40,752 nucleotides of DNA, taken from the IMG/VR virus record IMGVR_UViG_3300020138_000011, positions 1-40,752 of that record. One strand, written 5' to 3'. Shown in pieces: positions 126 to 35,326 of this stretch. The translations under genes were made by a program, and so were the position numbers. How positions within the stretch are numbered: the first letter of the stretch is position 1; every line of letters starts with the position of its first letter. The stretch comes from a virus (lineage: Duplodnaviria; Caudoviricetes). Below the pieces are notes generated by a model. That model did not search any database, was not told where the DNA came from, and was given only the letters and a program-made list of their open reading frames with translations.

Positions 126-395
126 TTATGTTCCTTGTCTGGCTCTATCAACGTTAGAAGTTTCAGAGACCTTGATGTAGATTCCAAGAATGTTCTCCTG
201 GACGATCTCATCGATTGCTTCTTGGATGATTCGTTCTTGCTCGGCATCTGGAAGAGCATCAGATACCTTAGCGATTCGAGCTAGGTAAGACGGGGTGTCA
301 TACCCTTGTGATGCATCGAAGGCAAACCATTCATCATAGTGCTTGAAAGGATTGAACGGGTTGTCGATTGTGCTAAGCATGTACAGTACAGTCAT
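126..395 (-). CDS. hypothetical protein (89 aa)
   Basis: ORF with GAAAGGAG RBS, directly downstream of the 880-aa gene. Confidence 0.8.
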   Translation of the reverse strand: MTVLYMLSTIDNPFNPFKHYDEWFAFDASQGYDTPSYLARIAKVSDALPDAEQERIIQEAIDEIVQENILGIYIKVSETSNVDRARQGT

Positions 396-407
396 GACGA
401 ACTCCTT

Positions 408-3050
408 TCATCCCACAAGCTTGTTGATTGTACTAGTTGAAACACCAAGAGCATCAGCAATCTCTGCTTGAGTGTAGCCTGCTGCAAGCATAGTCATAGC
501 TCTAGCTTCGATAGCCTTAGACAAGGTTCTAGACGGTCTTGGTGTGGCGAGCTTCTTGACTTCATCGAGATCCGCGTGCTTTAGAATCTCTTTCAACTTA
601 CTAGCTGTAATAGCGCCTGCTTGAATGGCTTCCCATTGCCTTGGTGTGAACTTGATCTGTTGCTTCTTAGCACCTGTAATCAAGCGTGCACGCTCTAGTT
701 CTTGCCCTCTAATCTTCTTAATGAAGTCGCCAGTAACGTCAGGATTAGACAATCTTCTAGCCTTAACAGCAGCGTTTGCTAGAATCTGAGCGCGTCGTTC
801 TAGAGGGGCGTTTCTCTGGGCTATGGCTAGGGCACTATTAAGTGCGGCCACCTCTTCCGCATACACCCCCCTAGCTGATGGTGAATAGGGGGTGGGCTTA
901 GTTTCTAGTGCCGTCTTACGGGCCTGGTTAGCCAAGGCCTTCAACTTGTTTGCGTGGTCAGCGTAAGCCATCTCCATAGAAGTGCCAGGCTTAGACATCA
1001 AGGATCTGGCATCCTCTACAACCGCCATCTTAGTGGTTTTAGTCTGGCGAGTTACTACATCACCCTTCTTGTTAACGTAGGTCCTACCAGTAGGCTCAAA
1101 CATGAGTCGACCAGTCTTAGGGTCTACAGGGCCGCCCTTTGCTGCTGTTCTGGGCTTTCTTTCGTCAACCCAAGTGGGGGAGCTAGCTCTAGAGATGAGT
1201 GTAGCAGAACCCGCATTGGCACGCTCTTGATATTTGACCTTCAATTCCTTGATGCCGTTATCTAGAGCAGACTGCTTATAATCGAGATGGTGTTTTTCGG
1301 CATCGATAACGACCATCGAATGCTTAACAGCCCTAGCGATCTCCGATTCGTGAGCCCCCTTGATTGTCATATCTGTAATCAGATTAGATACATCGCCCAT
1401 GAGCTGCTGTTTCCTAGTATCAGAAAGCTTTGGCGCATCCTCGGGGAGCTTATAGCGAAGAGGGTCGAAATCCTTCAATGCTCCCAGAGGGGACGAACTC
1501 TTAATTGGCTTTCCACCTGGATTGGGGATCACCAAAACTGAGTCTCCATCAAAGTCGGCCCCAGAAAGCTGCTTTGCAACTTGAGGGTTTATACCGATAG
1601 CATCTTTTGCCTGACCGATAATAGCCCTTGATTCTCGATGCCTGTTATTCACAGTCAATTGAGGAATCTCAAAGATGCCTCCGTGAGGATGTCTAATCAG
1701 AACAACCGTTTCACCAGAACGAAAGTTGGGCGCGTAAACCTCATTATCCTTCAGACTAGGAATAGGTAGAATTACATGGTTCCTAGTTCTCGGAAGACTA
1801 GCTGCCTTCAGATGAACTGCAGAGGAATCTGCCGAGTCAGCAAAAGCTTCCATAAGCCTCTGCTTAACAACAGGGTTGGTCAGCGCATTGATTTCATCAA
1901 ACTCGGCGCGCTTAATGTCGAAAGACAACCCCAACTGACGCTTAGCCAATTCCGTACCCTGCTTAGAAAGCATCTGGCTAGAGAACGTGCGAGACCACTC
2001 GTGCCAGTCACCTTCTTCCCGAAGGATGTTAAGTGCTCCCGATTGACGACGGATATTCGACGAAAACGGGTTCTCTGGATCCGACCCCATAAGCTTCATG
2101 GCGTCCTTCGGGTTGCCCGTAGAACTCTTGTTTGTATTGAATACAATGTCTACACCATCGGGAAGATCCGTCTTGTAGATGGCCATACCCTTCAGGTAGT
2201 GGGTTCCATCAATCGCAATTCGAACCTGAGCGTAGCGAGAAGAACCAAGCGAAAGGTCCTTGACACCCGGGCGAATGTAGATAACACCGTCTCGGTCGGC
2301 ACCGCCCTCTTCTGCATATGCGACCTTGACTCGCTTACCACTAACATTCTTTGGTGGCCCAATAACCTCGTAAGTTCGACCACGGTCATCGCTGGTCTCA
2401 CCGATAAGGTTAATCTTTTCTGGGTTTGTAACGATGTCCTTAAAGGTTTCCCTGCCAGTCTTTCCTGGAGGAGCTAGCACCTTGACCTCGGTCATGTGTC
2501 CGGTTCCAAGCTGCTCAATCTTAACCTTATGAACCTCGTATCCCTCTTCCTTCAGCATAGCCAACGCGGTATTAAGCTTTGTCGAGCTGATTCCGAGATC
2601 GTGCTCTACCCCGGCGCCGACGTCAATGTAGCCCTTTTCGTCGACGTTCTTCTTCAGGATGTTGGCGGTGGTCTTAAGTACTGCCTGATTCTCCTGAATT
2701 GAGGTGTTCAAAAGTGCACGAACCGAAGATTCGTTAATACCCATTCGCTCACCAATGGCGACGTTAGACAGCCCCTTTTCCTTTAGGCGGACCGCCAGAG
2801 CCACGTCTCCAGACCGCTTCTCATGCCTTGAAATTGCCGTGGCTGCTCGAAGCTGAGTTGTGGTCCAAGGACGACCGTCTTCATCGAGAATGCTCTTGGC
2901 GATTTCTGTGTCCGTAAGACCGTTATTTCGAAGCTCGTCTACGTAACCGAGGAAGTTCATACCCCTCTGATAGGGGTTACTGCCACTGCCCCAAGGATAC
3001 CGCCCAGAACGTCGAAGGATGCCATAGTGCATGATCTCTTCGTCGGTCAC
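408..3050 (-). CDS. putative single-subunit two-barrel (DPBB) RNA polymerase with N- and C-terminal HTH-like segments
   Basis: Motifs in order: DGVIYI..QVR..KG, VLIRHP, LSGADFDGD (DFDGD at 1542-1556) and HSMVVIDAEKH, as in YonO/cellular RdRP-type polymerases; HTH-like segments LSNVAIGERMGINESSVR and YTQAEIADALGVSTSTI. Confidence 0.75.
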   Translation of the reverse strand: MTDEEIMHYGILRRSGRYPWGSGSNPYQRGMNFLGYVDELRNNGLTDTEIAKSILDEDGRPWTTTQLRAATAISRHEKRSGDVALAVRLKEKGLSNVAIGERMGINESSVRALLNTSIQENQAVLKTTANILKKNVDEKGYIDVGAGVEHDLGISSTKLNTALAMLKEEGYEVHKVKIEQLGTGHMTEVKVLAPPGKTGRETFKDIVTNPEKINLIGETSDDRGRTYEVIGPPKNVSGKRVKVAYAEEGGADRDGVIYIRPGVKDLSLGSSRYAQVRIAIDGTHYLKGMAIYKTDLPDGVDIVFNTNKSSTGNPKDAMKLMGSDPENPFSSNIRRQSGALNILREEGDWHEWSRTFSSQMLSKQGTELAKRQLGLSFDIKRAEFDEINALTNPVVKQRLMEAFADSADSSAVHLKAASLPRTRNHVILPIPSLKDNEVYAPNFRSGETVVLIRHPHGGIFEIPQLTVNNRHRESRAIIGQAKDAIGINPQVAKQLSGADFDGDSVLVIPNPGGKPIKSSSPLGALKDFDPLRYKLPEDAPKLSDTRKQQLMGDVSNLITDMTIKGAHESEIARAVKHSMVVIDAEKHHLDYKQSALDNGIKELKVKYQERANAGSATLISRASSPTWVDERKPRTAAKGGPVDPKTGRLMFEPTGRTYVNKKGDVVTRQTKTTKMAVVEDARSLMSKPGTSMEMAYADHANKLKALANQARKTALETKPTPYSPSARGVYAEEVAALNSALAIAQRNAPLERRAQILANAAVKARRLSNPDVTGDFIKKIRGQELERARLITGAKKQQIKFTPRQWEAIQAGAITASKLKEILKHADLDEVKKLATPRPSRTLSKAIEARAMTMLAAGYTQAEIADALGVSTSTINKLVG

Positions 3051-3607
3051 AGCTCCGCCTCCATTCGTAGGTTCTTGATTCGCTTATCAAAAGTGATAAC
3101 ACGATCCATAAGATGTGCGATTCGATCTGGCTCGGGGGCTAGAATCTCGATTTCGTCATTCTGATAGATGCGTAGTTCGATGGCGATGTCAAATGGCTTA
3201 TACCTATACTCCAGACAGAAGAATGCCGCATACAGCTCTAGCTGAGTCATACTACATGGAGTAACACCAGACTTATAGTCGTGAATCCGGAGGAAGTTGT
3301 CTCGAAAAGAGATAGCATCTGCGGTTCCAAAAGCGTTTTCCGAAACATATAGCGGCTGCTCGGGAGTCATCCTAAACCCGATGGCATCATTGACAAACGC
3401 GTTGATGCTCCGATTACTCCTTGGAAGCCGCTGCTTTAGTCTAATAGCTGTAGCCGCAAATTCATGTAGCTCCACGCCCCTCTGCGCAGCCATTGACCGA
3501 AGGAAGGTTGCGTCCAGCTTTTCCTCATCATAGTTAACCCAGTGATACTTACTAGGGCTGAGGAAGGCGTGCTTACCGATCAGTTCCAAATGCCTGTTGA
3601 AGCTCAT
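3047..3607 (-). CDS. PD-(D/E)XK exonuclease, Cas4-like/DUF2800-like
   Basis: HAFLSPS N-terminus, E..GTAD..IHDYKSG and QLELYA motifs; start moved to MSFNRH, behind a GGAGG RBS. Confidence 0.75.
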   Translation of the reverse strand: MSFNRHLELIGKHAFLSPSKYHWVNYDEEKLDATFLRSMAAQRGVELHEFAATAIRLKQRLPRSNRSINAFVNDAIGFRMTPEQPLYVSENAFGTADAISFRDNFLRIHDYKSGVTPCSMTQLELYAAFFCLEYRYKPFDIAIELRIYQNDEIEILAPEPDRIAHLMDRVITFDKRIKNLRMEAEL

Positions 3608-3869
3608 AAAGGACCTCCTCTTCATTCTCCGGATAGATAAACGCCGCGAATGACATCCGACCTAGACGATCGATAAAGTACTCTTGGTTCGGGCGCTTTC
3701 TAGCTGTAGCAGACACCTTAACCTCTAAGGCTGCCCAAAAACTCTGAAAGAGAACTAGAAGATCCGGAATCCCTTGAATGTAGTTCGGGTCGTTCTTAAT
3801 GACTACACAGCCAGGAAACAAGATCTCCAATCTTTTAATGATGTGGGCTTGGTATTTGCTCTCCAACAT
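3573..3869 (-). CDS. VRR-NUC family nuclease
   Basis: E..Q, GIPDL, LEVK and RPNQ motifs; start at MLESKY with GAGG RBS. Confidence 0.8.
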   Translation of the reverse strand: MLESKYQAHIIKRLEILFPGCVVIKNDPNYIQGIPDLLVLFQSFWAALEVKVSATARKRPNQEYFIDRLGRMSFAAFIYPENEEEVLYELQQAFGTDR

Positions 3870-3928
3870 TTCAACCTCTTCCGAAAAATGAAAAGGATAG
3901 AAAAATGCATACGCATACTCTATACCTT

Positions 3929-3955
3929 TCATAATATGGTGTGTTTATTGTGCTG
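3929..3955 (-). promoter_or_regulatory. degenerate copy of the 27-bp promoter motif
   Basis: CAGCA-N3-TAAACA-N5-TATTATGA, same spacing as the consensus. Confidence 0.55.
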
Positions 3956-5977: not shown

Positions 5978-6002
5978 CTAGAACCCGTGTTAGGGGTCCT
6001 AG
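5978..6002 (-). terminator. cassette terminator with CTAACAC loop
   Basis: Stem-loop followed by a U-tract on the minus strand. Confidence 0.7.
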
Positions 6003-6012
6003 CTTTGTGAGA

Positions 6013-6276
6013 CTACTTCTTGCGAAGACGGATCTCACTCATGATCCGAGGGTCGGGCGAGTCGGAGTACCGCCACTGGTACTTCTTGTAGAACTCGTCC
6101 ACGGTCAGGATCTCGCAGGGCATCTCGCTGTTGTACGGGTAGACGAACACCGACATGCCGTTGTCGGCGAGCGTGGTGGGCGTCTCCGGGTTGGAGATGA
6201 GGGGGCTGAGGATCCTGAGGCTGTGGATGTTCTCGTGGGTGATGAAGATGGCGATTCCGTAGGCCTTCTTGGACAT
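6013..6276 (-). CDS. hypothetical cassette protein (87 aa), paralog of 16747..17007
   Basis: GAAAGGA RBS; flanked by the promoter motif and a terminator. Confidence 0.8.
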   Translation of the reverse strand: MSKKAYGIAIFITHENIHSLRILSPLISNPETPTTLADNGMSVFVYPYNSEMPCEILTVDEFYKKYQWRYSDSPDPRIMSEIRLRKK

Positions 6277-6303: not shown

Positions 6304-6330
6304 TCACTATATGCACTGTTTTGTGTGCGA
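6304..6330 (-). promoter_or_regulatory. 27-bp promoter motif
   Basis: TCGCA-cac-AAAACA-gtgca-TATAGTGA. Confidence 0.75.
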
Positions 6331-7066: not shown

Positions 7067-7495
7067 TCACGCACCCCAGACCCGATCCTTATGGTCCAGA
7101 GCAAGAATGTGCGGGATGGTGTTTCCAATCTCCTTGAAAACGTCCGACATAGTGAAGTAGTGCACACCATTATCGAACGAGAACGCTTCTGGATCTCTGA
7201 CATTTTGCCAGAGGCGGAAGTCATTCTTTCCGATCTCGGTCCACTCGTCTGGATCGCTCGACAAAGGCGACAGAAGCTCGCCTTTGAGAAGCGTGTGAAT
7301 GGCTTCAACCATGGAATGTCGGGAAGAAAGATCGTCGTCCAAGCCAAGATTGACGAATGCTTGGAAGACCCTGAGAATCGAATCTATGGGTAGGCCACCC
7401 TCAATAGTCAACTCACGCTTAGCGTGAGCGATCAAAGGGTGATCGTAGTCGATAAGTCCACTGTCAGGACTAGGGGAAGTTTCCTCGATGTGCAT
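7067..7495 (-). CDS. hypothetical phage protein
   Basis: GAAAGGAGAC RBS; LSPL..DPDEW..WQNVR pattern; start moved to MHIEET. Confidence 0.75.
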   Translation of the reverse strand: MHIEETSPSPDSGLIDYDHPLIAHAKRELTIEGGLPIDSILRVFQAFVNLGLDDDLSSRHSMVEAIHTLLKGELLSPLSSDPDEWTEIGKNDFRLWQNVRDPEAFSFDNGVHYFTMSDVFKEIGNTIPHILALDHKDRVWGA

Positions 7496-7627
7496 GATAA
7501 TGTCTCCTTTCAAAAATGTTTAAGACGGGAGGGCGGATGTGGGGCAACACTCTACCACCGCTAACATCTCTTACCTAGTGTTAGACCCTCCCCCGCACAA
7601 GGTTTGGCGAGAACCTTTATTGGAAGA

Positions 7628-8855: not shown

Positions 8856-11800
8856 CTACTTCACAAACTCCTTGAAGCTGACATACTTTTCGATACTCTG
8901 ACGGGCATCATATGCGAGCTTCTCGAAATATGACATGTCGATACTGTCTGTCATGTCGTTTGCCTTGACAATCTCAGCCTCGTGCCAGAAGTATCCCTTA
9001 GTCCCAGTCACGGAATAGAAGTTCCCGTCCTTCTCTCGATAGAGGGTTCCTCCACCACAACCGGGCATAATGGGGACAAACTCCCCGACCCTACCGACGA
9101 ACTTCATGGCACCGGTAGTCAAAGCCATCGGCGTTGTGTCGGTTTCGAAGTTGAGGTACATGGCCGTGGTAACACTCTTGGCCTCACACAGGTCCTTAAA
9201 GACGATCGGCTCGTTAGAGAACAGCGTCTTAAAGACGTACGGGTGCTGGAACTCGGCCCCCACAGCCTCCCAATGCTCGGGCTTTCGACCAGCTCTAGCC
9301 TTGGCGATATAGACAGCATTGTTCACCAGACAGAACTTGTCATAGGTCACTTCGTGCTCGAAGTCATACCCATACTCCTGACCAAATTCCATGACGAGGT
9401 CGATGATCTCAGGCGTTGCGTTTGGGATCTTGATCGAGTCCGTCTTGATGTGCGCGACGGTGAAGCCCAACGTCTGTACATAGTGCTTCAGATCGATCAT
9501 GAACAGGGCCCCACGCTTAGCCACGATGTTATCGATGTTTCGCGGATCCCTGAACGAGTTGTCAAAGCTGGCGCTAGTCAGACCGTATACGATGTTAATT
9601 ACGATCTTAAGCGCGTAGGAAAGAGCCTCAGCTTCCTCCTCGTTAGTGAGGTGTCGAGCGAGCTTCCCGCCCAGCATCTTCTTCGCCGTTTCGAAGTCCT
9701 TGTGCTTGATAGCAAGACGAGCCTGCTTTAGCGCCGAGAAGTTCTTCGTGTAATCCCCGAAGAGATTCAGCTGTTCGATGCTGGTTGGATGCATAGATGC
9801 GATGTCAAGCACTGCGACATTCTCGTAATATCCCGGTTCGGCATAGACATAACCGCCTTCGGATGGGTCTTCACCCTTATACGTAGACTTGCCAGCATCG
9901 AAAATATAACCAGGAAATTCGGTGCTCAGATCGGTGTAGACAAAGCTATCTTGTGGATGCTTGTCGTCACCGAAGACAATCCTACTAGTATGACGCTGGG
10001 TGGTGTCATTCACAGTAAGCCCCGACAAATCTGCTAGAATCTGACGGGCAACAAAGTCTTCCTTCCGGGCATGGAATACCGCCTCGGTGGAGAGGACGTC
10101 GTTCGCACAATATTCAACGACCTGGTTGATCTTGTCTTCCGGAACAGGCTCGTCCCAGGGGAGCTCAGACTCCTTGTGCTCGATGCCGAGCTCAATCTGG
10201 AACTTCTTAAGACTCTGCTTCTTGCTTGAGAAGTCATAGATGTCCGTGTAAGACAGACGATACGCTTCCCCAAAATATGCACCAGGAGTATTTGAGATGA
10301 GCTTTTGGCTCAGCTTATACAACTCCTCATTGTCGTAGCCCATGTAGCGAGCATACAAAATATGGTTGTCATACCTTCGGCAGTTGAAGCCAACAAGCTT
10401 GAGCGACATGATCTTCTCGATGTCTTGAGGCGATGGGTTGATCATCTTAACGACCTGCTTGGCCCCGTCATACTTCCAACAGACCACAAACAGATTCGAG
10501 AAAACCTCAACATCGAAGAATACCAGGGTCTCGTCCTTAGGCGTGTCCGGTGCGCTCTCGATGTTATCCTCACTCTTAAACTGCATCGTCTGAACAAGCT
10601 TGATGCAGTAGGGGGCCTGGTTTGTCGAGTTATTAGCAAACGCCAGAATCCTAGAACGAAGATCAGTCACGTCATACGACAGCCCCGAAGCGTGAGCATC
10701 TTCTAGAATCTTGTGGATGAAGTCCATACTAGGCTTCGTCCCCGGATGAATCTCCTTCCTGAGGTTTCGTAGAATCAGCTCACGAAGACCCTTTTCGCTC
10801 TTTATCTGGTCATGATTTATCAACTTCTTCTCCTTAATAGGGAGTCCAGACGAGATAGTTGCCACGGGTACAGCGTTACACTTAGAGACTCTTCGACGAA
10901 GCGATGCGTCTCCGACGAATACTTTGATCTCGATTCCGTCCTCGTAGACTCGCTCGAGAAGCTCTGGGTCTCCTCCTTCATAGATGTAGTGGAGATGAAC
11001 TCCTCGCCCACTCTTGCTGTACTCAGCGTAAGTAGGCGGCCATTGGCTAGCAGCCTCGAGGTTCTTCTCGCTGGACTTTTCGCCATTTTCATCCTTAAGA
11101 TCGAAGTCGATGACGATGTGCTTCTTGGGCAGTTTCACATAGTGGGTCCTTGACGTGTCAAGATCTGCCAATGTCGTGTCTACATTAGCCCATTTCTTAG
11201 TTGGCATTTCGTCCGCATTAGCATACTGTGCCGGCTGAGAAGCAAGAAGCTCGTCGAGCAACGATGTCTCCTCATCCATCACTAGAGAGAAAGCGTGTTC
11301 TTCAACTTCAACCCTCGTCTTGAAATGATCCGCCTTGAAGATTGAGTAGTAGCTCCTGACTCGTTCGCCATTCACCTCAGCCCGATCCTCGAACTTCTCA
11401 AAGTAATTCTTAAGCTCCTCTCGAAGCTTAACTCGACTGATCTTAAACTCAGACCCCGTCTCATCACTAAACTGCTTATACATATCATAAGCCTGCTTGA
11501 GAGTAACTCCGTCCTGCTCCTTAAACACATCAAAATATGCTTCGATGAAATTGTAGAAGTAGTCCGTTTGCAGCATCATCTCGACCGGACGATAGTTGAT
11601 GTAGTAGTTCTTCCCCAATTCCAAATATCGCTGAAGGCAATAATGAGCAATTGCCCCCAATTCGAAATCAATCTGGGACATCAACGTGTGGTACCGTCGA
11701 ACTGGAACCTTTCTACCGGAGGGGTGAACGTCGATTAGCCGTCGAATGATGCCAGATTTGGCGTCTGTAATCTTGACTGGGCGGTTTGTCCCCATGAATA

Positions 11801-12614
11801 GGAACGCGTTAATCCGAGCCATATATGACGGCTTGTACTTCTCGTTTAGACTCATCTCCTCGTGAGAGACAATTGAGTTTAGCTTAGAGTTGTCTTCAAT
11901 CTTGCTGAGGTCCCCATCGTGTTGGATCGCAACTAGGGGGTTTGACTTAAATACTTCTGTGGAGAAGGAGTTGTTCGAGGAGGTAAGAGCCTTGGCTTCG
12001 AACGCTGTATAATACCCTTCGAAGAGACGCTGTATAATGTCGAGGACGGTAGACTTACCCGTACCCGCTGGACCATACAAGACCAGGAACTTCTGGATAG
12101 ACTTTGCGTCGCCTGATACCACAGCGCCGATGGCCCATTCCAGCTTATCCCTTTCTGATGGGTCGTACAGTGTAGAAATAAGCTCATCGTACGCCGAGAT
12201 GTCGCCGCTCTCAAGTGGATACGGCAACCGTCGACTGACATAGTCTTCCTTTCTAACTTCGGTGTTGGAGAAGGTAAGCTTCTCATCCAACTGCTTATAC
12301 GAGTCTGAAATATGACTCATGTAGTTTCGAAACTGAAGCCAACTGCTGGAGGAGAAATCGCCCATAAGCTTTGGAATGAAGAGACCATCTTTTTTCTCCT
12401 TCTCCAATCGATCCTGCTCCTCGAGAAGAGTTGCATCTACAAGCGCCTGAACGTCGTATTCGTCGGTGCTCCACACGCCCGCATGTTCATCCCAAATAGC
12501 GTAGAACGACTTACCTCGGACCATCAAATCCTTGGAGCGAACCACTCGGAAATCGGGATAAATCTCGATGCTTCCGTGGCGCCCAGGTCGAGTCTTAATC
12601 CTGTAGAAGTCCAT
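8856..12614 (-). CDS. fused D5-like P-loop helicase, PrimPol-type primase and family B-like DNA polymerase
   Basis: GPAGTGKS; DFD and SKSGRGVHLHY; exonuclease motifs FFDVE, GFNCRRYD and YCANDV; polymerase motifs DIASMHP, KIVINIVYG and KTDS. Confidence 0.85.
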   Translation of the reverse strand: MDFYRIKTRPGRHGSIEIYPDFRVVRSKDLMVRGKSFYAIWDEHAGVWSTDEYDVQALVDATLLEEQDRLEKEKKDGLFIPKLMGDFSSSSWLQFRNYMSHISDSYKQLDEKLTFSNTEVRKEDYVSRRLPYPLESGDISAYDELISTLYDPSERDKLEWAIGAVVSGDAKSIQKFLVLYGPAGTGKSTVLDIIQRLFEGYYTAFEAKALTSSNNSFSTEVFKSNPLVAIQHDGDLSKIEDNSKLNSIVSHEEMSLNEKYKPSYMARINAFLFMGTNRPVKITDAKSGIIRRLIDVHPSGRKVPVRRYHTLMSQIDFELGAIAHYCLQRYLELGKNYYINYRPVEMMLQTDYFYNFIEAYFDVFKEQDGVTLKQAYDMYKQFSDETGSEFKISRVKLREELKNYFEKFEDRAEVNGERVRSYYSIFKADHFKTRVEVEEHAFSLVMDEETSLLDELLASQPAQYANADEMPTKKWANVDTTLADLDTSRTHYVKLPKKHIVIDFDLKDENGEKSSEKNLEAASQWPPTYAEYSKSGRGVHLHYIYEGGDPELLERVYEDGIEIKVFVGDASLRRRVSKCNAVPVATISSGLPIKEKKLINHDQIKSEKGLRELILRNLRKEIHPGTKPSMDFIHKILEDAHASGLSYDVTDLRSRILAFANNSTNQAPYCIKLVQTMQFKSEDNIESAPDTPKDETLVFFDVEVFSNLFVVCWKYDGAKQVVKMINPSPQDIEKIMSLKLVGFNCRRYDNHILYARYMGYDNEELYKLSQKLISNTPGAYFGEAYRLSYTDIYDFSSKKQSLKKFQIELGIEHKESELPWDEPVPEDKINQVVEYCANDVLSTEAVFHARKEDFVARQILADLSGLTVNDTTQRHTSRIVFGDDKHPQDSFVYTDLSTEFPGYIFDAGKSTYKGEDPSEGGYVYAEPGYYENVAVLDIASMHPTSIEQLNLFGDYTKNFSALKQARLAIKHKDFETAKKMLGGKLARHLTNEEEAEALSYALKIVINIVYGLTSASFDNSFRDPRNIDNIVAKRGALFMIDLKHYVQTLGFTVAHIKTDSIKIPNATPEIIDLVMEFGQEYGYDFEHEVTYDKFCLVNNAVYIAKARAGRKPEHWEAVGAEFQHPYVFKTLFSNEPIVFKDLCEAKSVTTAMYLNFETDTTPMALTTGAMKFVGRVGEFVPIMPGCGGGTLYREKDGNFYSVTGTKGYFWHEAEIVKANDMTDSIDMSYFEKLAYDARQSIEKYVSFKEFVK

Positions 12615-14219: not shown

Positions 14220-15098
14220 TTAGATCTTGTCGTAGATTACGCCGTCAACGTTGAAGTCCAGGAGAATGGCTGCCTCCTGACCATTGATGAACTGACGCTT
14301 AGCGTAGTTTTCTCCATCGAACAGACCGAAATCGATGAAGTTGTCACCATCGTGGTTCATAACCCAACCGACGACTGCTCCCGCGGAAGTACGATCGAAT
14401 CCAAGAGCATCGTAGATGTCATTGAGAAGGACGTGGCCCCGTGCTCGAAGGAGATCGTTCGCATACGTCTGCTGCGAGTGCAGGAATGCTCGATTGTAGG
14501 ACGGCTCATGCTTCCACAGAGAGTTTGTCTCGTCGAAGAAGCGAGCGTAGATGGAGGGGGATCCTGGGACCCGAACCTCAATCTTCTTGCCATCCTCGTC
14601 CGTACGAGTCTCGGTCTTAACGTCGTGTCGGAGGTCATACTCGACTGCGTCTCCAACCTTATCTTCGACGCGCTTGCGATACTCATTAAAGCCCTTCTCG
14701 AGAACTGCGTACGCCGCCACAAGCGAGGCGTTACGCTTGCGCATAATGCCATGGCCAGCCACGATGCTGACAATGGAGGCTGCGCCGAGAGAGATCGCCG
14801 GGGCGTAGAGCTTTGCCAGATTCATGGACGTCTTGGTGTAGACATATGCCATGTTCTTGGCGTGCTCTTCGGTATTGAGAGCCGACTCCTGCTGGACCAT
14901 CTTAGCGTTCTCGATCCCGAACTTGTGATCCTCGAGGATGGGCTCGACCTTAAGTGTGGCCTTGGCGCCCATAACCGCGGCGACAACTCCACCGACGATA
15001 CCCACAGTCGTGAGAATTTCCGGCGAGTACTTCCGAGCGATCAACGCTCCTCGATGCGCGCCTCGAATGACGCTGGTCTTAACTGCGCTAATGTTCAT
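14220..15098 (-). CDS. DUF6353-like membrane-associated protein
   Basis: SPEILTTVGIVG, LYAPAI and SLVAAY motifs; paralog of 18309..19079. Confidence 0.7.
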   Translation of the reverse strand: MNISAVKTSVIRGAHRGALIARKYSPEILTTVGIVGGVVAAVMGAKATLKVEPILEDHKFGIENAKMVQQESALNTEEHAKNMAYVYTKTSMNLAKLYAPAISLGAASIVSIVAGHGIMRKRNASLVAAYAVLEKGFNEYRKRVEDKVGDAVEYDLRHDVKTETRTDEDGKKIEVRVPGSPSIYARFFDETNSLWKHEPSYNRAFLHSQQTYANDLLRARGHVLLNDIYDALGFDRTSAGAVVGWVMNHDGDNFIDFGLFDGENYAKRQFINGQEAAILLDFNVDGVIYDKI

Positions 15099-16660: not shown

Positions 16661-16687
16661 TCACTATAAGCGATGTTTTAGATGCGA
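16661..16687 (-). promoter_or_regulatory. 27-bp promoter motif
   Basis: TCGCA-tct-AAAACA-tcgct-TATAGTGA. Confidence 0.75.
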
Positions 16688-18012: not shown

Positions 18013-18039
18013 TCATTATAGAACGTGTTTTTAATGCGA
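18013..18039 (-). promoter_or_regulatory. 27-bp promoter motif
   Basis: TCGCA-tta-AAAACA-cgttc-TATAATGA. Confidence 0.75.
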
Positions 18040-18051
18040 TCATAAAAGAAA

Positions 18052-18072
18052 GAGACCCGTGTTAGGGGTCTC
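18052..18072 (-). terminator. cassette terminator
   Basis: GAGACCCCTAACACGGGTCTC followed by TTTCTTTT. Confidence 0.8.
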
Positions 18073-18081
18073 AGTCTTTGA

Positions 18082-18252
18082 CTACTTCTTGGTAACGGAT
18101 GTGAAGAGCAGGTGTACTCTCGGCGTGAAGCCCGCTGCTCGGATCACGTTGGAGATCTTCCAGTTCATGTGCACCACGACGGTGGTGATGTAGAAGAGGA
18201 TCTTGTAGATGATCCAGAGGGGGAACAGGATCGGGAGCAAGAGATAACGCAT
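18082..18252 (-). CDS. small membrane protein (56 aa)
   Basis: Hand translation MRYLLLPILFPLWIIYKILFYITTVVVHMNWKISNVIRAAGFTPRVHLLFTSVTKK; GAAAGGA RBS. Confidence 0.8.
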   Translation of the reverse strand: MRYLLLPILFPLWIIYKILFYITTVVVHMNWKISNVIRAAGFTPRVHLLFTSVTKK

Positions 18253-18280: not shown

Positions 18281-18307
18281 TCATTATAAGCCCAGTTTTA
18301 AGTGCGA
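18281..18307 (-). promoter_or_regulatory. 27-bp promoter motif
   Basis: TCGCA-ctt-AAAACT-gggct-TATAATGA. Confidence 0.75.
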
Positions 18308-18308
18308 C

Positions 18309-19079
18309 CTATCCGAACTTGTAGTAATCCCGAACGGGGGTCATTCGATATCCCAGAGCAAGACAAGGCTTATTATCCTCGGAAAGGACTGAGGAGAATT
18401 GGAGATCCATTTGATGATCGACAGTCCACCCAAGCTCTTCCCCCATACCAGTGGGTGCAAGACCGATCAGATTGTAGAACTCATTCTGAGAAGCATACAT
18501 ATCACGAAGAATCTTCGCGTTGATGTCGTTCTGAGCCTTCCGGAGAGTCTCAATGTCGCTACGGAAGTATCGGCCAGTGATGGTCTCGTAGCAGAGAACG
18601 TCGCCATTCCCAGTGATGTAGACTTCCTTATTCGAAACGGGGTCCTCGGCTACCTTATTCTGAGCAACCGAATCTCGAATCTTCTCTTCCTTCTTTGAGC
18701 CGATTTGCTCGACCACAGCGTCCTTATAATCTGAGAACGCCTTTTCCGAAAGAGAATATGCGCTGGCGAGAAGAGCTGCTCGGCGCGACCCTACACGATT
18801 AGCACAAACGATGCACGTAATTGTAAGAGCGCCTGTTACGATTGCTGGAGCGTATACAGGCCCATACACTTTTACATACCGCTTCGCCAGTTCCATCTTT
18901 GTCTGTGGCGACCCGTTGGCGGCCTTGTCCTCTTCACCGCGCCTAAGTGCCTCGGGCGTCGAACGAACAGCCAAGATTGTAGTCCCGATCGTTCCAACAA
19001 CAGCAATACCTGTAAGAATTGCCGGGGCGTTATCCGACACGGTCTTTACAGCCTTCTTAAAGACATCTTGAATCACCAT
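18309..19079 (-). CDS. DUF6353-like membrane-associated protein
   Basis: APAILTGIAVVG, VYAPAI, LASAY and GRYF motifs; paralog of 14220..15098. Confidence 0.7.
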   Translation of the reverse strand: MVIQDVFKKAVKTVSDNAPAILTGIAVVGTIGTTILAVRSTPEALRRGEEDKAANGSPQTKMELAKRYVKVYGPVYAPAIVTGALTITCIVCANRVGSRRAALLASAYSLSEKAFSDYKDAVVEQIGSKKEEKIRDSVAQNKVAEDPVSNKEVYITGNGDVLCYETITGRYFRSDIETLRKAQNDINAKILRDMYASQNEFYNLIGLAPTGMGEELGWTVDHQMDLQFSSVLSEDNKPCLALGYRMTPVRDYYKFG

Positions 19080-19157: not shown

Positions 19158-19184
19158 TCATTATAAGATGTGTTTTTTATGCGA
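19158..19184 (-). promoter_or_regulatory. 27-bp promoter motif, followed directly by a hairpin and U-tract
   Basis: TCGCA-taa-AAAACA-catct-TATAATGA. Confidence 0.75.
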
Positions 19185-19196
19185 GGGAAAAAGAAA

Positions 19197-19217
19197 GAAG
19201 CCCTTGTGAGGGGCTTC
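19197..19217 (-). terminator. cassette terminator
   Basis: GAAGCCCCTCACAAGGGCTTC followed by TTTCTTTTT. Confidence 0.8.
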
Positions 19218-19428: not shown

Positions 19429-19455
19429 TCACTATAAGCCTTGTTTTGGCTGCGA
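19429..19455 (-). promoter_or_regulatory. 27-bp promoter motif
   Basis: TCGCA-gcc-AAAACA-aggct-TATAGTGA. Confidence 0.75.
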
Positions 19456-19463
19456 AAAAGAAA

Positions 19464-19484
19464 GAGACCCGTGTTAGGGGTCTC
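19464..19484 (-). terminator. cassette terminator
   Basis: GAGACCCCTAACACGGGTCTC followed by a U-tract. Confidence 0.8.
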
Positions 19485-19496
19485 AATCTTTAGAGA

Positions 19497-19610
19497 TCAG
19501 CGATTAGAGTTTCGGATCTCACGAACAAGGACCCAGATGAGCCAGAGTCCTCCGGTGAACAGCGTGAGCGTTGCATCGAGGACGAAGTTCCAAAAGGTGT
19601 ACTTCTTCAT
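19497..19610 (-). CDS. small membrane protein (37 aa)
   Basis: Hand translation MKKYTFWNFVLDATLTLFTGGLWLIWVLVREIRNSNR; GAAAGGA RBS. Confidence 0.8.
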   Translation of the reverse strand: MKKYTFWNFVLDATLTLFTGGLWLIWVLVREIRNSNR

Positions 19611-19641: not shown

Positions 19642-19668
19642 TCATTATAAGCCCTGTTTTCCATGCGA
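19642..19668 (-). promoter_or_regulatory. 27-bp promoter motif
   Basis: TCGCA-tgg-AAAACA-gggct-TATAATGA. Confidence 0.75.
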
Positions 19669-19676
19669 AAAAGAAA

Positions 19677-19697
19677 GAGACCCGTGTTAGGAGTCTC
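19677..19697 (-). terminator. cassette terminator
   Basis: GAGACTCCTAACACGGGTCTC followed by a U-tract. Confidence 0.8.
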
Positions 19698-19709
19698 TTT
19701 CTTTGCGTC

Positions 19710-19986: not shown

Positions 19987-20013
19987 TCATTATAAGCCCT
20001 GTTTTCCATGCGA
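19987..20013 (-). promoter_or_regulatory. 27-bp promoter motif
   Basis: Identical to 19642-19668. Confidence 0.75.
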
Positions 20014-20021
20014 AAAAGAAA

Positions 20022-20042
20022 GAGACCCGTGTTGGGGGTCTC
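20022..20042 (-). terminator. cassette terminator
   Basis: GAGACCCCCAACACGGGTCTC followed by a U-tract. Confidence 0.8.
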
Positions 20043-20051
20043 AGTCTTTGA

Positions 20052-20222
20052 CTACTTCTTGTTGAGGTCGTTCACGAGAGCCTTGACCGGGGACTCATAG
20101 CCGAGAAAGCTAATGCATTCCTCTAGCAGACCCAGTACCAACACGATGACGATGACGGGTATGAACAGGATCAGGCTGAGCAGGATGAGCGGAGCGGCGA
20201 TGAGCAACTGGTAGTAGCGCAT
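20052..20222 (-). CDS. small membrane protein (56 aa)
   Basis: Hand translation MRYYQLLIAAPLILLSLILFIPVIVIVLVLGLLEECISFLGYESPVKALVNDLNKK. Confidence 0.8.
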   Translation of the reverse strand: MRYYQLLIAAPLILLSLILFIPVIVIVLVLGLLEECISFLGYESPVKALVNDLNKK

Positions 20223-20255: not shown

Positions 20256-20282
20256 TCACTATAAGCCCTGTTTTCCATGCGA
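20256..20282 (-). promoter_or_regulatory. 27-bp promoter motif
   Basis: TCGCA-tgg-AAAACA-gggct-TATAGTGA. Confidence 0.75.
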
Positions 20283-20723: not shown

Positions 20724-20750
20724 TCACTATAAGCCGTGTTACCGGTGCGA
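20724..20750 (-). promoter_or_regulatory. 27-bp promoter motif overlapping the holin stop codon
   Basis: TCGCA-ccg-GTAACA-cggct-TATAGTGA. Confidence 0.7.
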
Positions 20751-23629: not shown

Positions 23630-24462
23630 TAGAGTCCTCCATACTTCACAGTTACCACATAATCAACCCAAGGAACTGATGGCGGAGACGAAGGCCACCC
23701 AGAGTCAAATATAGAAACGCTATTTGCCCCGGGGGTTACTAGTGGCCAAACAGACCTTGGGGCGATGTACCCCAGCAAGGAAACTTCCTCGTCATCTCGG
23801 ACAAGCGTCAATTCCTTGTTACCCGGAGTGGAATTGAAACGAAGGAGATCTCCGTTTTGGAAGTCGTACAGGACTTCTAGAACTTGCGTCCCGTACTTAG
23901 AATTTACAACTCGGAGACGAAAACCTGAATGATCATCACTGAGCAACGTAAATTCTGCAAATATGCCCGTCTCAACATCTCCGTAATAGTCATAATCCCA
24001 ATCGACGTTAATCTGTTCTGGGGTTACGCTATCGTTCGATCTAAAATATGGATCGAAGCAGAGAATCGAGATGACAGCTTTTGGCTCTCTAGTGAATAAA
24101 GGCGCATCAAGTGACTCAATACGCCCTCGAATCTCACAGAAGAACTCGTTATCCATGAAGAACCGGAGGAGTACCTCCGTTCCAGGCATGAAGAAAGGGT
24201 AAAGCCCCCTCCTCAATTCCTGAACGGAGGTACTCCCCGGGTCGTCCGGCTCAAGACGAAGCGTCGCAACGATGTTCCGCTTGTCCGTCCGACTATTCAT
24301 GAACTGTTCGCCATCAAAGTTTGGGAGGGTTGACGAGGAGAAAGAGGCCTTAGACGGCTCCAATCCCGTGATCTCCTCAATGACATATCCATTTGACGAA
24401 TCGAACATATCAAGAGCCAGTGTCGAACCGGCAGGATTAACAATCTCAATCTTGGTAAGCAT
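23629..24462 (-). CDS. distal tail protein
   Basis: Directly follows the tape measure; CFDPYF and PGAN motifs. Confidence 0.75.
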   Translation of the reverse strand: MLTKIEIVNPAGSTLALDMFDSSNGYVIEEITGLEPSKASFSSSTLPNFDGEQFMNSRTDKRNIVATLRLEPDDPGSTSVQELRRGLYPFFMPGTEVLLRFFMDNEFFCEIRGRIESLDAPLFTREPKAVISILCFDPYFRSNDSVTPEQINVDWDYDYYGDVETGIFAEFTLLSDDHSGFRLRVVNSKYGTQVLEVLYDFQNGDLLRFNSTPGNKELTLVRDDEEVSLLGYIAPRSVWPLVTPGANSVSIFDSGWPSSPPSVPWVDYVVTVKYGGL

Positions 24463-30440: not shown

Positions 30441-31226
30441 CTAATCTGTAGAAATTGTATACTTATCGTCGGTCACAGTAACAAAGTCGCTATCGACCGA
30501 GAAACGACCACCGGTAAGGAGCGAAACCTGTCGCCTTGTCCCGGAAACTTCGAATGTATCCCCAAAAACCGTTAGAGTAATCGGGTCCTCTGGAATTCCA
30601 AGAATTGAGAGGATCTCATCCGTGGTAGGGAAAGTAGCGAGCGTTTCGTCTGTCCCATATAGTAGATCTTCGATTGCCGCCATAGTTTCTTGTTCGATTG
30701 CGGAGGAATCTAGAACAAAATATGACGAAGATCTATACCCCGGAACCTTGATCGGCACTGTGGTTAGATCCCAAGAGAACAAAGCCGGCTCGGAATCACT
30801 TCCGCGGGTCTGTCGAGTCAATTCTGTAGCGCCAGCCCAAACATTATAGACCAAATGGAGCTTATACCCCTTGTCCTGAGTGATTCCGTCTCCAATTTCG
30901 GTTCTATAACAAAGATTGAACGGCTTCTTGTTCTGGTATCCAATTCCAAAACCAGGCCGAATACTTCTCAGACCCATACAAACGGCAAACTCGTCAGGAT
31001 AGGTGTATGCTTCAATCTTTCCTTCAAAAACTTCAGAAGTAAAAGTTTGCTTGTACTTCTCTCCATCATAGAAGAAAGAGTGTGGTTCGCCGCCTTCTGG
31101 TGCTTCTTCGATAGAGACTACACCATTCCAGGGGACACCATAACCACCGTCAACATACAGAACTGCACGACTAATGCCATCCTCAAAGCGCCTAGTTTCT
31201 GGGTCGCCCCATGTAAGTCTTGCCAT
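30441..31226 (-). CDS. major tail protein paralog
   Basis: Shares WNG, IEAYTYPDEF and GYKLHLVY with 31807..32676. Confidence 0.8.
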   Translation of the reverse strand: MARLTWGDPETRRFEDGISRAVLYVDGGYGVPWNGVVSIEEAPEGGEPHSFFYDGEKYKQTFTSEVFEGKIEAYTYPDEFAVCMGLRSIRPGFGIGYQNKKPFNLCYRTEIGDGITQDKGYKLHLVYNVWAGATELTRQTRGSDSEPALFSWDLTTVPIKVPGYRSSSYFVLDSSAIEQETMAAIEDLLYGTDETLATFPTTDEILSILGIPEDPITLTVFGDTFEVSGTRRQVSLLTGGRFSVDSDFVTVTDDKYTISTD

Positions 31227-31806: not shown

Positions 31807-32676
31807 TCAGTCCTGGTACTCGAACGCCCAGTCGTCGTCCGATGTGGCCGACAGCTGGTAACCAACGTTCGGGAATGCACGGACGAGCGTGTCCTCAGTG
31901 ATGACGACCGAACCAGTGACCGTCTCACCGTCGATGGTGTAACGAACGCCGGCGACCGAGGGGATCGTAATCGTGTTCGTCTCCTCGTTGAAGGTCGGAG
32001 ACGTAGCGTACACCAAGTTCGAAACGCCCTCGAAGAGCGAGACGATCTCTGCGGGAAGCGGAAGACGCGGAGTCTGAATGTCCGTTCCGTAGAGGATGTC
32101 CTCGAGTGCTGCCAGCTTAGCCGAGTTCACCTTTGTCGAGTCGATCGTGATCGTCGCCGACGGGCTGTGATCAGGAACCGGAACCGACGTCGTGCTGAAC
32201 TCCCAAGAGAACGTCATCGCCTCGGGGGACTCATTGACCGTTGAGTACGCCTTCTCCGACGGCGAAGCTAGCGCACCGTAAACCAGGTGAAGCTTGTATC
32301 CGTGATCGGTGGAGTCGACATCGTTACCAAGAAGCGTCCGGTACGAGAAGCCGAACGGCTTGCGAGTCTGCTGACCGACAAACACACCGGGAGCAAGAGC
32401 TGCCGATCCGTCGCACTGAGCGAACTGCTCCGGGTAGGTGAACGCTTCGATCGTTCCACCAAATTCCTCGGCAGACTGAAGGTTCAGGTACTTGAGGTTG
32501 TCCGCGTACTGCGGGGTTGCCTCGGCGCCGGAGGGGGACTCGTTGACTGAGGTGAGTCCATTCCATGCATACCCGTTAACGTACTCCCCCTGGTTGTTGG
32601 GGATGTAGAGAACGCCGCGATCGACGCCAGTCTCATACAGTCGGTCCCCAACACCATCCCAAGTAATCCTAGACAT
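31807..32676 (-). CDS. major tail protein with C-terminal Ig-like extension
   Basis: YETGVDRGVLY, YADNLKY and IEAFTYP motifs; strong codon bias. Confidence 0.85.
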   Translation of the reverse strand: MSRITWDGVGDRLYETGVDRGVLYIPNNQGEYVNGYAWNGLTSVNESPSGAEATPQYADNLKYLNLQSAEEFGGTIEAFTYPEQFAQCDGSAALAPGVFVGQQTRKPFGFSYRTLLGNDVDSTDHGYKLHLVYGALASPSEKAYSTVNESPEAMTFSWEFSTTSVPVPDHSPSATITIDSTKVNSAKLAALEDILYGTDIQTPRLPLPAEIVSLFEGVSNLVYATSPTFNEETNTITIPSVAGVRYTIDGETVTGSVVITEDTLVRAFPNVGYQLSATSDDDWAFEYQD

Positions 32677-33316: not shown

Positions 33317-35326
33317 CTACTGAGCCTGGTCGTTGAACTCGAACGTCCACTCGGTGGTCGTGCCGTCGGCGAAGTAGTAGTCCTCATTCGCAGACGCCTC
33401 AACCGTCGTGTTCTCAGTGATGACCACGGTGCCAGTAACAGGCGAGTCATCGATCGAGTACGTCACACCAGTGACCGAGGGGATGGTGATCGTGTTCGTC
33501 TCGCTGTTGAACGTCGGGGCAGAAGGCGTAACCTTAGTGCCCGTAGCGCGAGAGAAGACAAGCGCCGTCTTGAACTTGGTCAGAGCACCAGAGATACGAG
33601 TCTCCATGAGGTACTTGTACTGGTTGTAGTCGATGTCGAAGTCGTCAAACATCGACAGAGCACCACCCCTGTCTGCACCGAGGGTGTAGTCGCCGAGGTT
33701 GACCATGATCGCAAGAAGCTCGCCGCCCTCAACCGACTCAGACTCCATGACCTCAACGGTCACGATGTTCGAGACGCGAAGCGTGGACTGGAGCTCGCTG
33801 ATGTTGGCGTAGAGCTTGCGACCGATCTTGTCCTTCGAGAGGAGAAGGTCGTTGAGGATGTCCTCGGTCGTGAACATGGTCGGGTTGCCCGAGCCACGGT
33901 AGTACTTCCGGTTACGAATAATTGCATCGACAAGAGCGTCGCCCTTAACGTTAGCCGGAATAACGACCTTGTGCGAGTAGAACTCGTGGTCGTGAGCGAT
34001 CGGGCGAATTCCCTGACCCTCACCCGTGTCACCGGAGGGAGCCTTGATCTTGTCCGGGTTGGGGACCATCTCGCCATCGTCCTCGACCATGGCCGGACGA
34101 CCATCACCGATAAGAACTGCTCGAGCGATCTCCTCACGGACCATGAGCTTCATCTCGGCCTTAAGCCACGCAACAACATCGAGGTCGGTGATGTCGTGAA
34201 CGTCGTCCCGGTCAAGCTTCTGCTTCTTGTAGATCGTCGTCGGAGTGGTGACACGAGACTGGAGGGCGAAGAACTCCTCCTTCTTGAGGTTGCCCTTGAT
34301 GTAGCCAAGAGCGCGAGCCTCTTCGTGACGGACGTCTGCGCTGATCGACTTGATGCGCGAGAAGGGGTTCTTCTTGATACCGTTCATGACGGTCTCAACC
34401 CACTCGACCTTGCGCGTGATCAGCTCAGGGCTATTCTCAAGCGTCTTTGCGTCCGGGAAGAGAACATCGATGTTCGTGATCCCATACTCCTGTGCGTGCT
34501 TAAGGAAGGACTCCTTAAACGAGCCAAGAGACTTAGCATCGGCCATGATGGTCTCGAGCTGGGTGTGGGTGAGCGTGGGCTTAGCGCCGCCGCTAGCACC
34601 GTTCTGCTCAAAGACGTTCGCGGTCATTTCATCGCCCTTCTTATCATGCTGGAGTTCCTCGTCCTTGCCGGACTTATCTTCGTGCTTTGTCTCTTCGTCG
34701 TCTTCGTCGTCAGAGCCCTCTTCGAGAGCTTCGCTAACGAGATAGTGAACGACCTGCTTCTGCTCCTCGGTGAACGACTCGTAAACGTCCTTTACGGTCT
34801 TATCGCCGAGATTGTCGGTGGTCTTCTTGGCCACGTCGTCATCTCCCTTGTTATCCTGATGCTCGATCTCGAGACCGGTGTAGATTGTGGCCTCATCGTC
34901 TAGCTCTGCATATCCATCGCCGTGCTGAATGGTGACGTTATCAATGAACGCCCCTGGATTTGCACCGGCCAAGACCAGACTAACCTCACGAATCTCTCCG
35001 TGAACGACGTTCTGGCCCTGCTTTCGAAGCTCGTTTGCACGAATAGACAGCATGTTGATGTCTCTGTGCTTAACGAGCTCCCTGGCGTTTTGACCCGACG
35101 GAGTATCGTTGAAATACCCGTAGGCGTAAACACCATCTTCCCTATGCTCCAACACGGCGTGGCCGAGAATGTTCTCGGACGAGTTGATATCGTGCTGCCA
35201 GACCAAAGGGACGGTCTTGTTGTCGTTGTGCTTGAAGGCGTTCGGCATGATCGTGACACCATCAGAACACTTCAAACCCGCCTTCGTGGCGTAACCACCA
35301 AAATCAGGTTCCATTTTGATTGTCAT
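33317..35326 (-). CDS. fused prohead protease, scaffold and major capsid protein
   Basis: HK97-type protease motifs (PLVWQH, LSI, EVSLV..GANPGA), acidic linker, capsid domain and Ig-like tail. Confidence 0.88.
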   Translation of the reverse strand: MTIKMEPDFGGYATKAGLKCSDGVTIMPNAFKHNDNKTVPLVWQHDINSSENILGHAVLEHREDGVYAYGYFNDTPSGQNARELVKHRDINMLSIRANELRKQGQNVVHGEIREVSLVLAGANPGAFIDNVTIQHGDGYAELDDEATIYTGLEIEHQDNKGDDDVAKKTTDNLGDKTVKDVYESFTEEQKQVVHYLVSEALEEGSDDEDDEETKHEDKSGKDEELQHDKKGDEMTANVFEQNGASGGAKPTLTHTQLETIMADAKSLGSFKESFLKHAQEYGITNIDVLFPDAKTLENSPELITRKVEWVETVMNGIKKNPFSRIKSISADVRHEEARALGYIKGNLKKEEFFALQSRVTTPTTIYKKQKLDRDDVHDITDLDVVAWLKAEMKLMVREEIARAVLIGDGRPAMVEDDGEMVPNPDKIKAPSGDTGEGQGIRPIAHDHEFYSHKVVIPANVKGDALVDAIIRNRKYYRGSGNPTMFTTEDILNDLLLSKDKIGRKLYANISELQSTLRVSNIVTVEVMESESVEGGELLAIMVNLGDYTLGADRGGALSMFDDFDIDYNQYKYLMETRISGALTKFKTALVFSRATGTKVTPSAPTFNSETNTITIPSVTGVTYSIDDSPVTGTVVITENTTVEASANEDYYFADGTTTEWTFEFNDQAQ

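Follow-up and report, generated by a model that had tools for sequence, protein, structure and literature searches.

A predicted two-barrel RNA polymerase of the phage 1706 gp75 family and its association with a repeated promoter-like motif

The virus record IMGVR_UViG_3300020138_000011 (Caudoviricetes) of IMG/VR is a siphophage genome, and the window considered here comprises the whole analysed stretch of 40,752 bases, which is almost wholly minus-strand coded. Its final large gene, an open reading frame (ORF) at 408-3050 on the minus strand with a GTG start, encodes a protein of 880 amino acids that, as judged from its structural model, is almost certainly a two-barrel polymerase. This assignment, first made in a sequence-only reading of the DNA, is borne out by the PHROG 4291 profile, by invariant catalytic residues and by the predicted fold, all of which agree. 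The reading is right yet published, as the ORF joins a family already predicted in print. New here is the link of this family to a repeated promoter-like motif and to a candidate loading tag, both apparently absent from the accessible portions of published accounts. On balance, the evidence favours a DNA-dependent single-chain polymerase whose helix-turn-helix (HTH) modules read the phage motif, which drives early and middle genes and which is probably delivered with the virion.

Catalytic residues, predicted fold and family

The sequence-only reading described an HTH-containing protein with five motifs in a fixed order. The ORF is real, Pfam HTH matches are located at both ends of its product, and all five motifs occur in the given order: DGVIYI (residues 254-259), QVR..KG (275-288), VLIRHP (450-455), AKQLSGADFDGDSVLV (492-507) and HSMVVIDAEKH (577-587). 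A single detail needs correction, namely the spacer between QVR and KG, which has nine residues and not eight (the x8 pattern gives zero matches). The gene is divided as follows:

408-3050, minus strand: gene of the two-barrel RNA polymerase, PHROG 4291 / phage 1706 gp75 family, assigned by profile, homology and model
2982-3035, minus strand: N-terminal peptide IMHYG..SGRYPWGSG, residues 6-23, of low model confidence and similar to the DUF7211 peptide; candidate head-loading or cleavage tag
2427-2975, minus strand: N-terminal helical region, residues 26-208, with HTH modules and a helix-plus-hairpin at about 141-193; candidate promoter-binding part
2016-2330, minus strand: first (beta-like) barrel, about residues 241-345, with the invariant D254, Q275, R277 and K287; limits approximate, taken from model strands
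1521-1790, minus strand: second (beta-prime-like) double-psi barrel, about residues 421-510, with R453 and P455
1542-1556, minus strand: DFDGD metal-binding loop, residues 499-503
1290-1322, minus strand: HSMVVIDAEKH helix, residues 577-587, within the helical region that follows the second barrel
414-521, minus strand: C-terminal HTH, residues 844-879

The residues D254, G255, Q275, R277, K287, G288, R453, P455, D499, D501, D503 and D583 do not vary in any of the 121 aligned sequences, and therefore the motifs are not a product of chance. The same residues are still invariant in a more diverse set of 76 sequences, and D254 is nearly invariant in a set of 150. Among the 270 best-scoring proteins (query included), DxDGD is present in 270, RxP..GADFDGD in 264, DG..QxR-x9-KG in 261 and HSMxxIDAxKH in 206. 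Two-barrel polymerases have eight listed invariant positions according to the accessible text of PMC2919709 (Ruprich-Robert & Thuriaux 2010), and D254, R277, K287, R453, P455 and D499/D501/D503 fit these positions when mapped by motif order instead of residue-level superposition.

A structural comparison, which had been proposed as a check for a fold with two double-psi beta-barrels (DPBB), found this fold in the predicted model. The full-length AlphaFold model has a predicted local distance difference test score (pLDDT) of 84 and a predicted template-modelling score of 0.75; its Foldseek matches in the PDB are headed by QDE-1 (E 1e-9), followed by RDR2, P74-26 gp62, a related Thermus phage gp64, P23-45 gp96 and then cellular large subunits, while the BFVD matches are models of Thermus phage and other viral polymerase-like proteins. 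The isolated core (residues 230-625) is modelled with a pLDDT of 91.9 and again retrieves QDE-1 (E 1.7e-11, TMq 0.58). Alignment of the core with VIA-align against 48,161 chains resulted in a Z-score of 19.3 for QDE-1 (root-mean-square deviation (rmsd) 4.3, 341 of 396 residues aligned), 17.1 for P74-26 gp62 (rmsd 4.9, 322 aligned) and 17.0 for RDR2 (rmsd 4.1, 333 aligned), with the next row at only 10.9. The second barrel on its own aligns with lone DPBB domains at Z 9-10 and an rmsd of about 2. By sequence, the fold is far less visible: single-sequence searches of the PDB found no polymerase and a profile search of the PDB retrieved HTH-like repeats only, so no member of the family seems to have been solved. 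The Pfam RNA-dependent RNA polymerase (RdRP) family PF05183 matches residues 490-583 below threshold (14.6 bits against a curated cut-off of 23.8, E 0.013).

Membership in the phage 1706 gp75 family is evident along the whole chain. The profile phrog_4291, labelled 'RNA-dependent RNA polymerase', matches residues 2-878 (E=0), and BLASTP against phage 1706 gp75 gives 35% identity across the whole length (E 4e-166). In a tblastn search, 250 of 50,697 GenBank phage records matched, 249 of them covering at least 80% of the query and all with less than 60% identity (37-56% in the best 40 of the 250 rows); the records are assigned to Arthrobacter (95), Gordonia (55), Streptomyces (54), Lactococcus (13) and other genera. 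At the protein level, at least 8,000 clusters at 90% identity were found, and a search of 50%-identity clusters returned 908 with E up to 1e-30.

This large family has been predicted in print more than once. In the accessible text of PMC2919709, the phage-1706 protein forms one of five YonO-like families with eight invariant residues, and the 1706 and SPbeta proteins are placed in separate families. Koert et al. (bioRxiv 10.1101/842583), as far as its accessible text goes, report an HHpred RdRP match (95.68%), HTHs at both ends and a DxDGD motif, and regard the protein as a potential RNA polymerase and as a signature gene of one group, AM/AU/AW/BI/CC/DJ/EL plus Lactococcus/Faecalibacterium. 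RefSeq records and PHROGs already label the family 'RNA-dependent RNA polymerase', and the expectation that automated annotation would say only HTH protein holds for over half of the 40 GenBank rows listed. A literature search, with subscription journals mostly outside its reach, found no biochemical assay of the PHROG 4291 family, and the passages searched in further sources (Cornuault 2018, PMC13432834, Klyczek 2017, PMC5759034) hold nothing on this enzyme; those of PMC7824862 offer no more than background. Two other placements were considered and given up. The NCgl1702 family was rejected by description, as the accessible text of PMC2919709 has NCgl1702 as a beta::beta-prime-like protein of 2169 amino acids and lists 1706 apart under YonO-like. 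Membership in Ca. Heliusvirales was dropped; an RNA polymerase is not among its nine marker genes, and the accessible part of its description makes no mention of Streptomyces, Lactococcus or Arthrobacter.

Promoter-like motif and helix-turn-helix modules

A repeat finder returned a ten-copy family with the coding-strand form TCGCA-N4-AAACA-N5-TATARTGA. Its TATAAT or TATAGT box corresponds to the bacterial host -10 consensus. A motif scan with up to 2 mismatches gave 10 matches in the window, all on the minus strand, and 0 in 100 shuffles. A GAAAGG ribosome-binding site follows shortly downstream in nine of the ten copies, and four copies are preceded by scan-listed terminator-like hairpins with a T-run, resulting in terminator-promoter-gene cassettes. 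No copy is present in the virion-gene region beyond position 20,750 (21-40.7 kb). The ten copies and a weaker one are:

6304-6330, minus strand: promoter-like motif, before ORF 6013-6276
16661-16687, minus strand: promoter-like motif
18013-18039, minus strand: promoter-like motif, after the terminator-like hairpin 18052-18072
18281-18307, minus strand: promoter-like motif with 1 mismatch
19158-19184, minus strand: promoter-like motif, after the hairpin 19197-19217; the sole copy without a close ribosome-binding site
19429-19455, minus strand: promoter-like motif, after the terminator-like hairpin 19464-19484
19642-19668, minus strand: promoter-like motif, after a similar hairpin and T-run
19987-20013, minus strand: promoter-like motif, after the terminator-like hairpin 20022-20042
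20256-20282, minus strand: promoter-like motif
20724-20750, minus strand: promoter-like motif with 1 mismatch, the first after the tail and holin genes
3931-3954, minus strand: weak copy with 2 mismatches under a relaxed pattern, heading the polymerase operon

The relaxed pattern also has one opposite-strand match at 6558, which may be due to chance. Of 13 related loci, 8 (L001, L005, L006, L010, L011, L013, L017 and L021, with L011, L013 and L017 being close relatives) have a core match at a distance of 910-1045 nt upstream of the polymerase.

Beyond the window, the exact motif occurs in an estimated ~480 stretches of IMG/VR, and a word resembling a ribosome-binding site is found within 50 nt downstream of 111 of 145 distinct viral sites, compared with 30 within 40 nt upstream. 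The association with the polymerase was followed in both directions. Starting from the motif, 26 of 36 viral records encode the polymerase, including 13 of the 14 near-complete ones; these records derive from 40 loci on contigs of at least 30 kb, picked from the first 80 of 134 listed. Starting from the polymerase, 12 of 15 records (from 17 polymerase loci) have the relaxed motif, with its copies confined to one strand in each case, and a reversed-pattern control gave 0. The carriers include phages of Rhodococcus, Streptomyces and Lactococcus, with 14 copies in ReqiPoco6, 11 in DrGrey and 8 in 1706. In the 596 billion bases of GTDB, the exact motif was found in 59 stretches, against 35-100 expected by chance at 40-50% GC; some of these are multi-copy cases on short contigs, which may be phage. 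This chance level, together with the co-occurrence with the polymerase, indicates that the motif is a property of the phage lineage and not a general host promoter. As far as sequence can tell, the polymerase likely reads this motif.

Parts that could bind it are located at both ends of the chain. Pfam places HTH_23 at residues 844-878 (whole-protein E 1.9e-11) and Sigma70_r4_2 at 850-878, and weaker HTH stretches at 84-119 and 91-116. HTHs are the only above-threshold Pfam families of the polymerase, and the matches are generic in kind. Among 25 of the 26 Pfam matches listed for it there is no sigma region-2 family but only region-4-like HTHs, and an NCBIfam scan gave sub-threshold HTH matches only (TIGR02937, 22.6 bits against a cut-off of 42.9). 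Replacement of a sigma factor by the fused HTHs in promoter recognition, as proposed in the sequence-only reading, is plausible because the promoter-like motif co-occurs with the polymerase.

Near-identical terminator-like hairpins accompany the motif at 5983-6022, 18045-18094, 19457-19506, 19670-19704 and 20015-20064, and gene cassettes could be exchanged at these recurring terminator-promoter joints. The accessible text of the Giantsbane preprint describes an intergenic repeat of 32 bp in phages of cluster AU and takes it as a recombination boundary; this repeat is likely identical with the motif, the two being matched by description and not by sequence.

N-terminal peptide and genome surroundings

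Peptides of the form HxG..WG occur only twice in the six frames of the window, i.e. at the starts of the polymerase and of a second protein encoded in the head module. The latter ORF matches DUF7211 (PF23847, E 6.7e-13), a domain on which a literature search found nothing; the likeness of the polymerase peptide to the DUF7211 peptide was judged by eye and by regular expression. The two features of the head module that bear on this peptide are:

38337-38732, minus strand: basic head-module protein of 131 amino acids starting with the DUF7211 peptide FLEHYGVKGMRWG, kin to the N-terminal peptide of the polymerase
33317-35326, minus strand: protease-capsid fusion with a linker at residues 131-285; candidate tag-processing enzyme

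Up to three more proteins with such a peptide are encoded in related loci. The strict tag pattern is present in 218 of 270 homologues, 201 of which have L/I-x-H, and most of the 30 listed among the 52 homologues missing it show a variant. In the linker of the protease-capsid fusion, 5 of 7 histidines have L or I at position -2, compared with 20 of 136 in 22 other ORFs of the window (p 0.001, with bounds chosen after looking), and similar ITH/LKH sites are found in 1706 gp10. The 'structural protein' label of 1706 gp75 reportedly originates from virion mass spectrometry. The ReqiPoco6 record names gp106 'structural protein, similar to 1706_gp75 structural protein' (GenBank note), and 1706 gp07, likewise a 'structural protein', carries a related peptide. 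That a head-module protein has the N-terminal tag as well is a hint of loading into the virion, and delivery of the polymerase from the virion is slightly favoured.

Several homologues differ from this layout. In proteins of about 1050 amino acids (P0004, P0021, P0124 and P0126), a 2H phosphoesterase-like domain (PF13563) precedes the tag, which is thereby internal in P0004 and P0124 and would thus fit a cut site. In the two protein clusters P0207 (1789 amino acids) and P0223 (1809 amino acids), the polymerase core (query residues ~120-839) forms the C-terminus of a long protein and has neither the tag nor the terminal HTHs. A portal-like domain (PF04860, E 2.9e-29) stands at the start of P0207, and P0223 has a phrog_8314 domain, as if head-associated multidomain proteins had captured the core.

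The genes of the window are arranged in the order terminase, portal, protease-capsid fusion, tail, holin, small genes, DNA polymerase/primase, single-stranded DNA-binding protein, helicase, HNH, endonuclease, exonuclease, polymerase and a gene for 89 amino acids. The order at the end of the genome is the same as in ReqiPoco6, P162, 1706 and DrGrey. Among sequencing runs, the best DNA match is an ant metagenome by its listing, a possible source of the virus, and no RNA run with the sequence is listed. The direct neighbours of the polymerase gene are:

126-395, minus strand: small downstream gene, 89 amino acids, phrog_4303, in the position of 1706 gp76 and ReqiPoco6 gp107; possible accessory
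3047-3932, minus strand: endonuclease (phrog_93) and exonuclease (phrog_3953) genes upstream of the polymerase, which apparently share its operon

At the other end of the genome, just upstream of the first late gene, a 35-bp inverted repeat (40574-40608 / 40670-40704) has 97% complementarity, a 61-nt spacer and a fold z of -11.3; it is a candidate packaging, origin or late-control element. A 38-nt imperfect inverted repeat lies within the distal tail gene (24162-24242). The other genes, all on the minus strand, include a likely anti-defence gene at 7067-7513 with a Pfam match to Tad3, the type I Thoeris inhibitor family (E 4.5e-15), and a fusion of 1252 amino acids at 8856-12614 that joins a DNA polymerase (phrog_4210) to an N-terminal part resembling primase/helicase (DUF5906). 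Two pairs of paralogues are present as well, namely major tail proteins at 30441-31226 and 31807-32676 (both phrog_2645) and DUF6353 / phrog_2152 proteins at 14220-15098 and 18309-19079.

Proposed mechanism, alternatives and known systems

In the favoured mechanism, the interface of the two barrels would hold two Mg2+ ions (D499/D501/D503 with D254) and the nucleoside triphosphate (R277, K287 and R453), as modelled on QDE-1 and the Thermus phage polymerases. The template would be double-stranded DNA, by analogy to YonO and to P23-45 gp64 and gp96. The fused HTHs may hold on to the CGCA and WWACA boxes during opening of the AT-rich TATART, so that early and middle genes would be transcribed from the repeated phage-specific promoter without a host sigma factor; the virion genes, which have no motif, would be read by another route. 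A few copies of the polymerase would probably enter the head via the N-terminal [L/I]xH-YG..WG peptide and then be injected, which would solve the problem of first synthesis that arises because the motif stands at the head of the polymerase's own operon. A bolder version is put forward only tentatively: a complete, sigma-free holoenzyme in a single 97-kDa chain, which would enter the head by means of a His-site tag, have this tag trimmed by the capsid protease, be injected with the DNA and read the three-box promoter CGCA-N4-WWACA-N5-TATART, conserved across phages of two bacterial phyla.

A number of observations weigh against the favoured mechanism. The search turned up no data on activity, template, promoter or virion for any family member. 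The closest folds include true RNA-templated enzymes, and the full-length Foldseek TM-scores are low, with 0.35 at most. According to the accessible text of PMC2919709, RdRPs lack the switch-2 and funnel motifs that DNA-dependent enzymes have, and the similarity of YonO-like proteins is limited to the barrel core; YonO itself was later shown to be DNA-dependent (PMC5467207, accessible text). YonO reads late genes, whereas the motif is missing from the late region. Regarding the motif, 3 of the 15 polymerase records miss its relaxed form, P162 retains 13 copies of the inner WWACA-N5-TATART only, and in two gut-phage records the inner core has no exact match, though a variant scored. Six of the 15 records are close relatives, and the co-occurrence is confounded because any lineage-wide gene would co-occur by descent. 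TATAAT is also a perfect host -10 box, so the host polymerase could read the motif sites. With respect to the virion, DUF7211 is absent from 25 of the 26 Pfam families listed for the polymerase (E up to 10), the evidence from the 1706 virion is second-hand, and six other 1706 'structural' proteins have no tag in their first 70-90 residues; gp62 and gp71, likewise labelled structural, lack the peptide.

The alternative that survives best, albeit an unlikely one, is a YonO-like DNA-dependent polymerase made after infection for the late (virion and lysis) operon, with the motif being a host sigma-A-type promoter that is perhaps helped by an activator. The transcription of late genes by YonO (PMC5467207, accessible text), the host-like -10 box, the lack of motif copies in 21-40.7 kb, which means that the late operon needs another route, and the 35-bp inverted repeat ahead of the first late gene are in line with this. 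However, the distance of 14 nt between the upstream box and TATAAT falls short of the 16-18 nt in sigma-70 promoters, and a sigma-70 scan of 15.5-21.5 kb called 0 motif copies. Furthermore, GTDB contains the full motif about as often as chance predicts, yet the motif keeps its spacing in phages of Actinobacteria and Firmicutes, and the 'structural protein' note of ReqiPoco6 is easier to reconcile with an early role.

An RNA-templated or priming enzyme, i.e. a true RdRP or a primer-making replication helper, is improbable. It would agree with the PHROG and RefSeq labels, with QDE-1 and RDR2 as best folds, with the weak Pfam RdRP match and with the position of the gene after helicase, nuclease and polymerase genes. 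The labels come from homology and not from assays, though, gp62 scores as high as RDR2, and several HTHs of the double-stranded DNA-binding type and a dedicated upstream motif would be needless for an RdRP. The phage members of the superfamily with assays (YonO, P23-45 gp64 and gp96) use DNA templates, according to the accessible parts of the respective reports. More improbable still is a motif-reading polymerase in which the HTHs alone do not replace sigma and a partner is needed (the 89-amino-acid downstream product or a host sigma/RbpA-type factor), as the small gene that follows the polymerase in the window, ReqiPoco6, P162, 1706 and DrGrey argues for it by synteny alone, which is weak, and the chain already has HTHs at both ends, even if no sigma region-2-like family appears among the 25 of 26 Pfam matches listed and the accessible text of PMC5467207 leaves YonO's need for a factor open.

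The DNA-dependent, motif-reading polymerase can thus be set beside the known systems. The closest is the phage 1706 gp75 family itself, which equals PHROG 4291 and the 'HTH domain protein / putative RNA polymerase' of the clusters AM, AU, AW, BI, CC, DJ, EL and FP_oengus. The window shares with it full-length homology, the motifs, the HTHs at both ends and a position near the end of the genome, where helicase, endonuclease and exonuclease come first and a small conserved gene follows, and differs only in sequence, with less than 60% identity to every GenBank phage match. Capsid-targeting leaders of phage T4 are short N-terminal peptides that are common to unrelated internal proteins and end in a site resembling that of the capsid precursor linker. 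They resemble the tag of the polymerase and the head-module protein in layout, a likeness by description and not by sequence. QDE-1 and RDR2, the best core matches, have the catalytic residues and the barrel order in one chain in common with the polymerase, but show 12-15% identity and have neither terminal HTHs nor a phage context.

Among phage enzymes, the closest solved folds are the non-virion gp64/gp62 and the tape-measure-fused virion protein gp96 of Thermus phages P23-45/P74-26 (Z 17.1 for gp62 and 9.9 for gp96). The accessible text of bioRxiv 10.1101/2022.12.01.518664 ties the virion and the non-virion two-barrel enzyme of P23-45 each to its own phage motif. In contrast to these enzymes, with which it has 17-18% identity in structural alignments, the polymerase of the window is a single enzyme that has HTHs at its ends and a short tag instead of a tape-measure fusion. 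Like SPbeta YonO, it is a phage-encoded single chain of about 100 kDa in the two-barrel superfamily, the YonO-like grouping being taken from the accessible text of PMC2919709. It is set apart from YonO, by description, as a separate family in the five-way split of that source, and its motif marks non-structural genes, unlike the late genes read by YonO (PMC5467207, accessible text). Whether YonO recognizes promoters alone is left open in the accessible text of PMC5467207. For the present family, which is large, often labelled 'HTH protein' only and apparently without an assay in the accessible literature, the candidate promoter, the cultured relatives (DrGrey, ReqiPoco6 and 1706) and the confident model make the promoter question directly testable. 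If the bolder version is true, the polymerase would represent a minimal two-barrel transcription system that initiates by itself and whose promoter is known, as well as a ready orthogonal expression tool for Gram-positive hosts.

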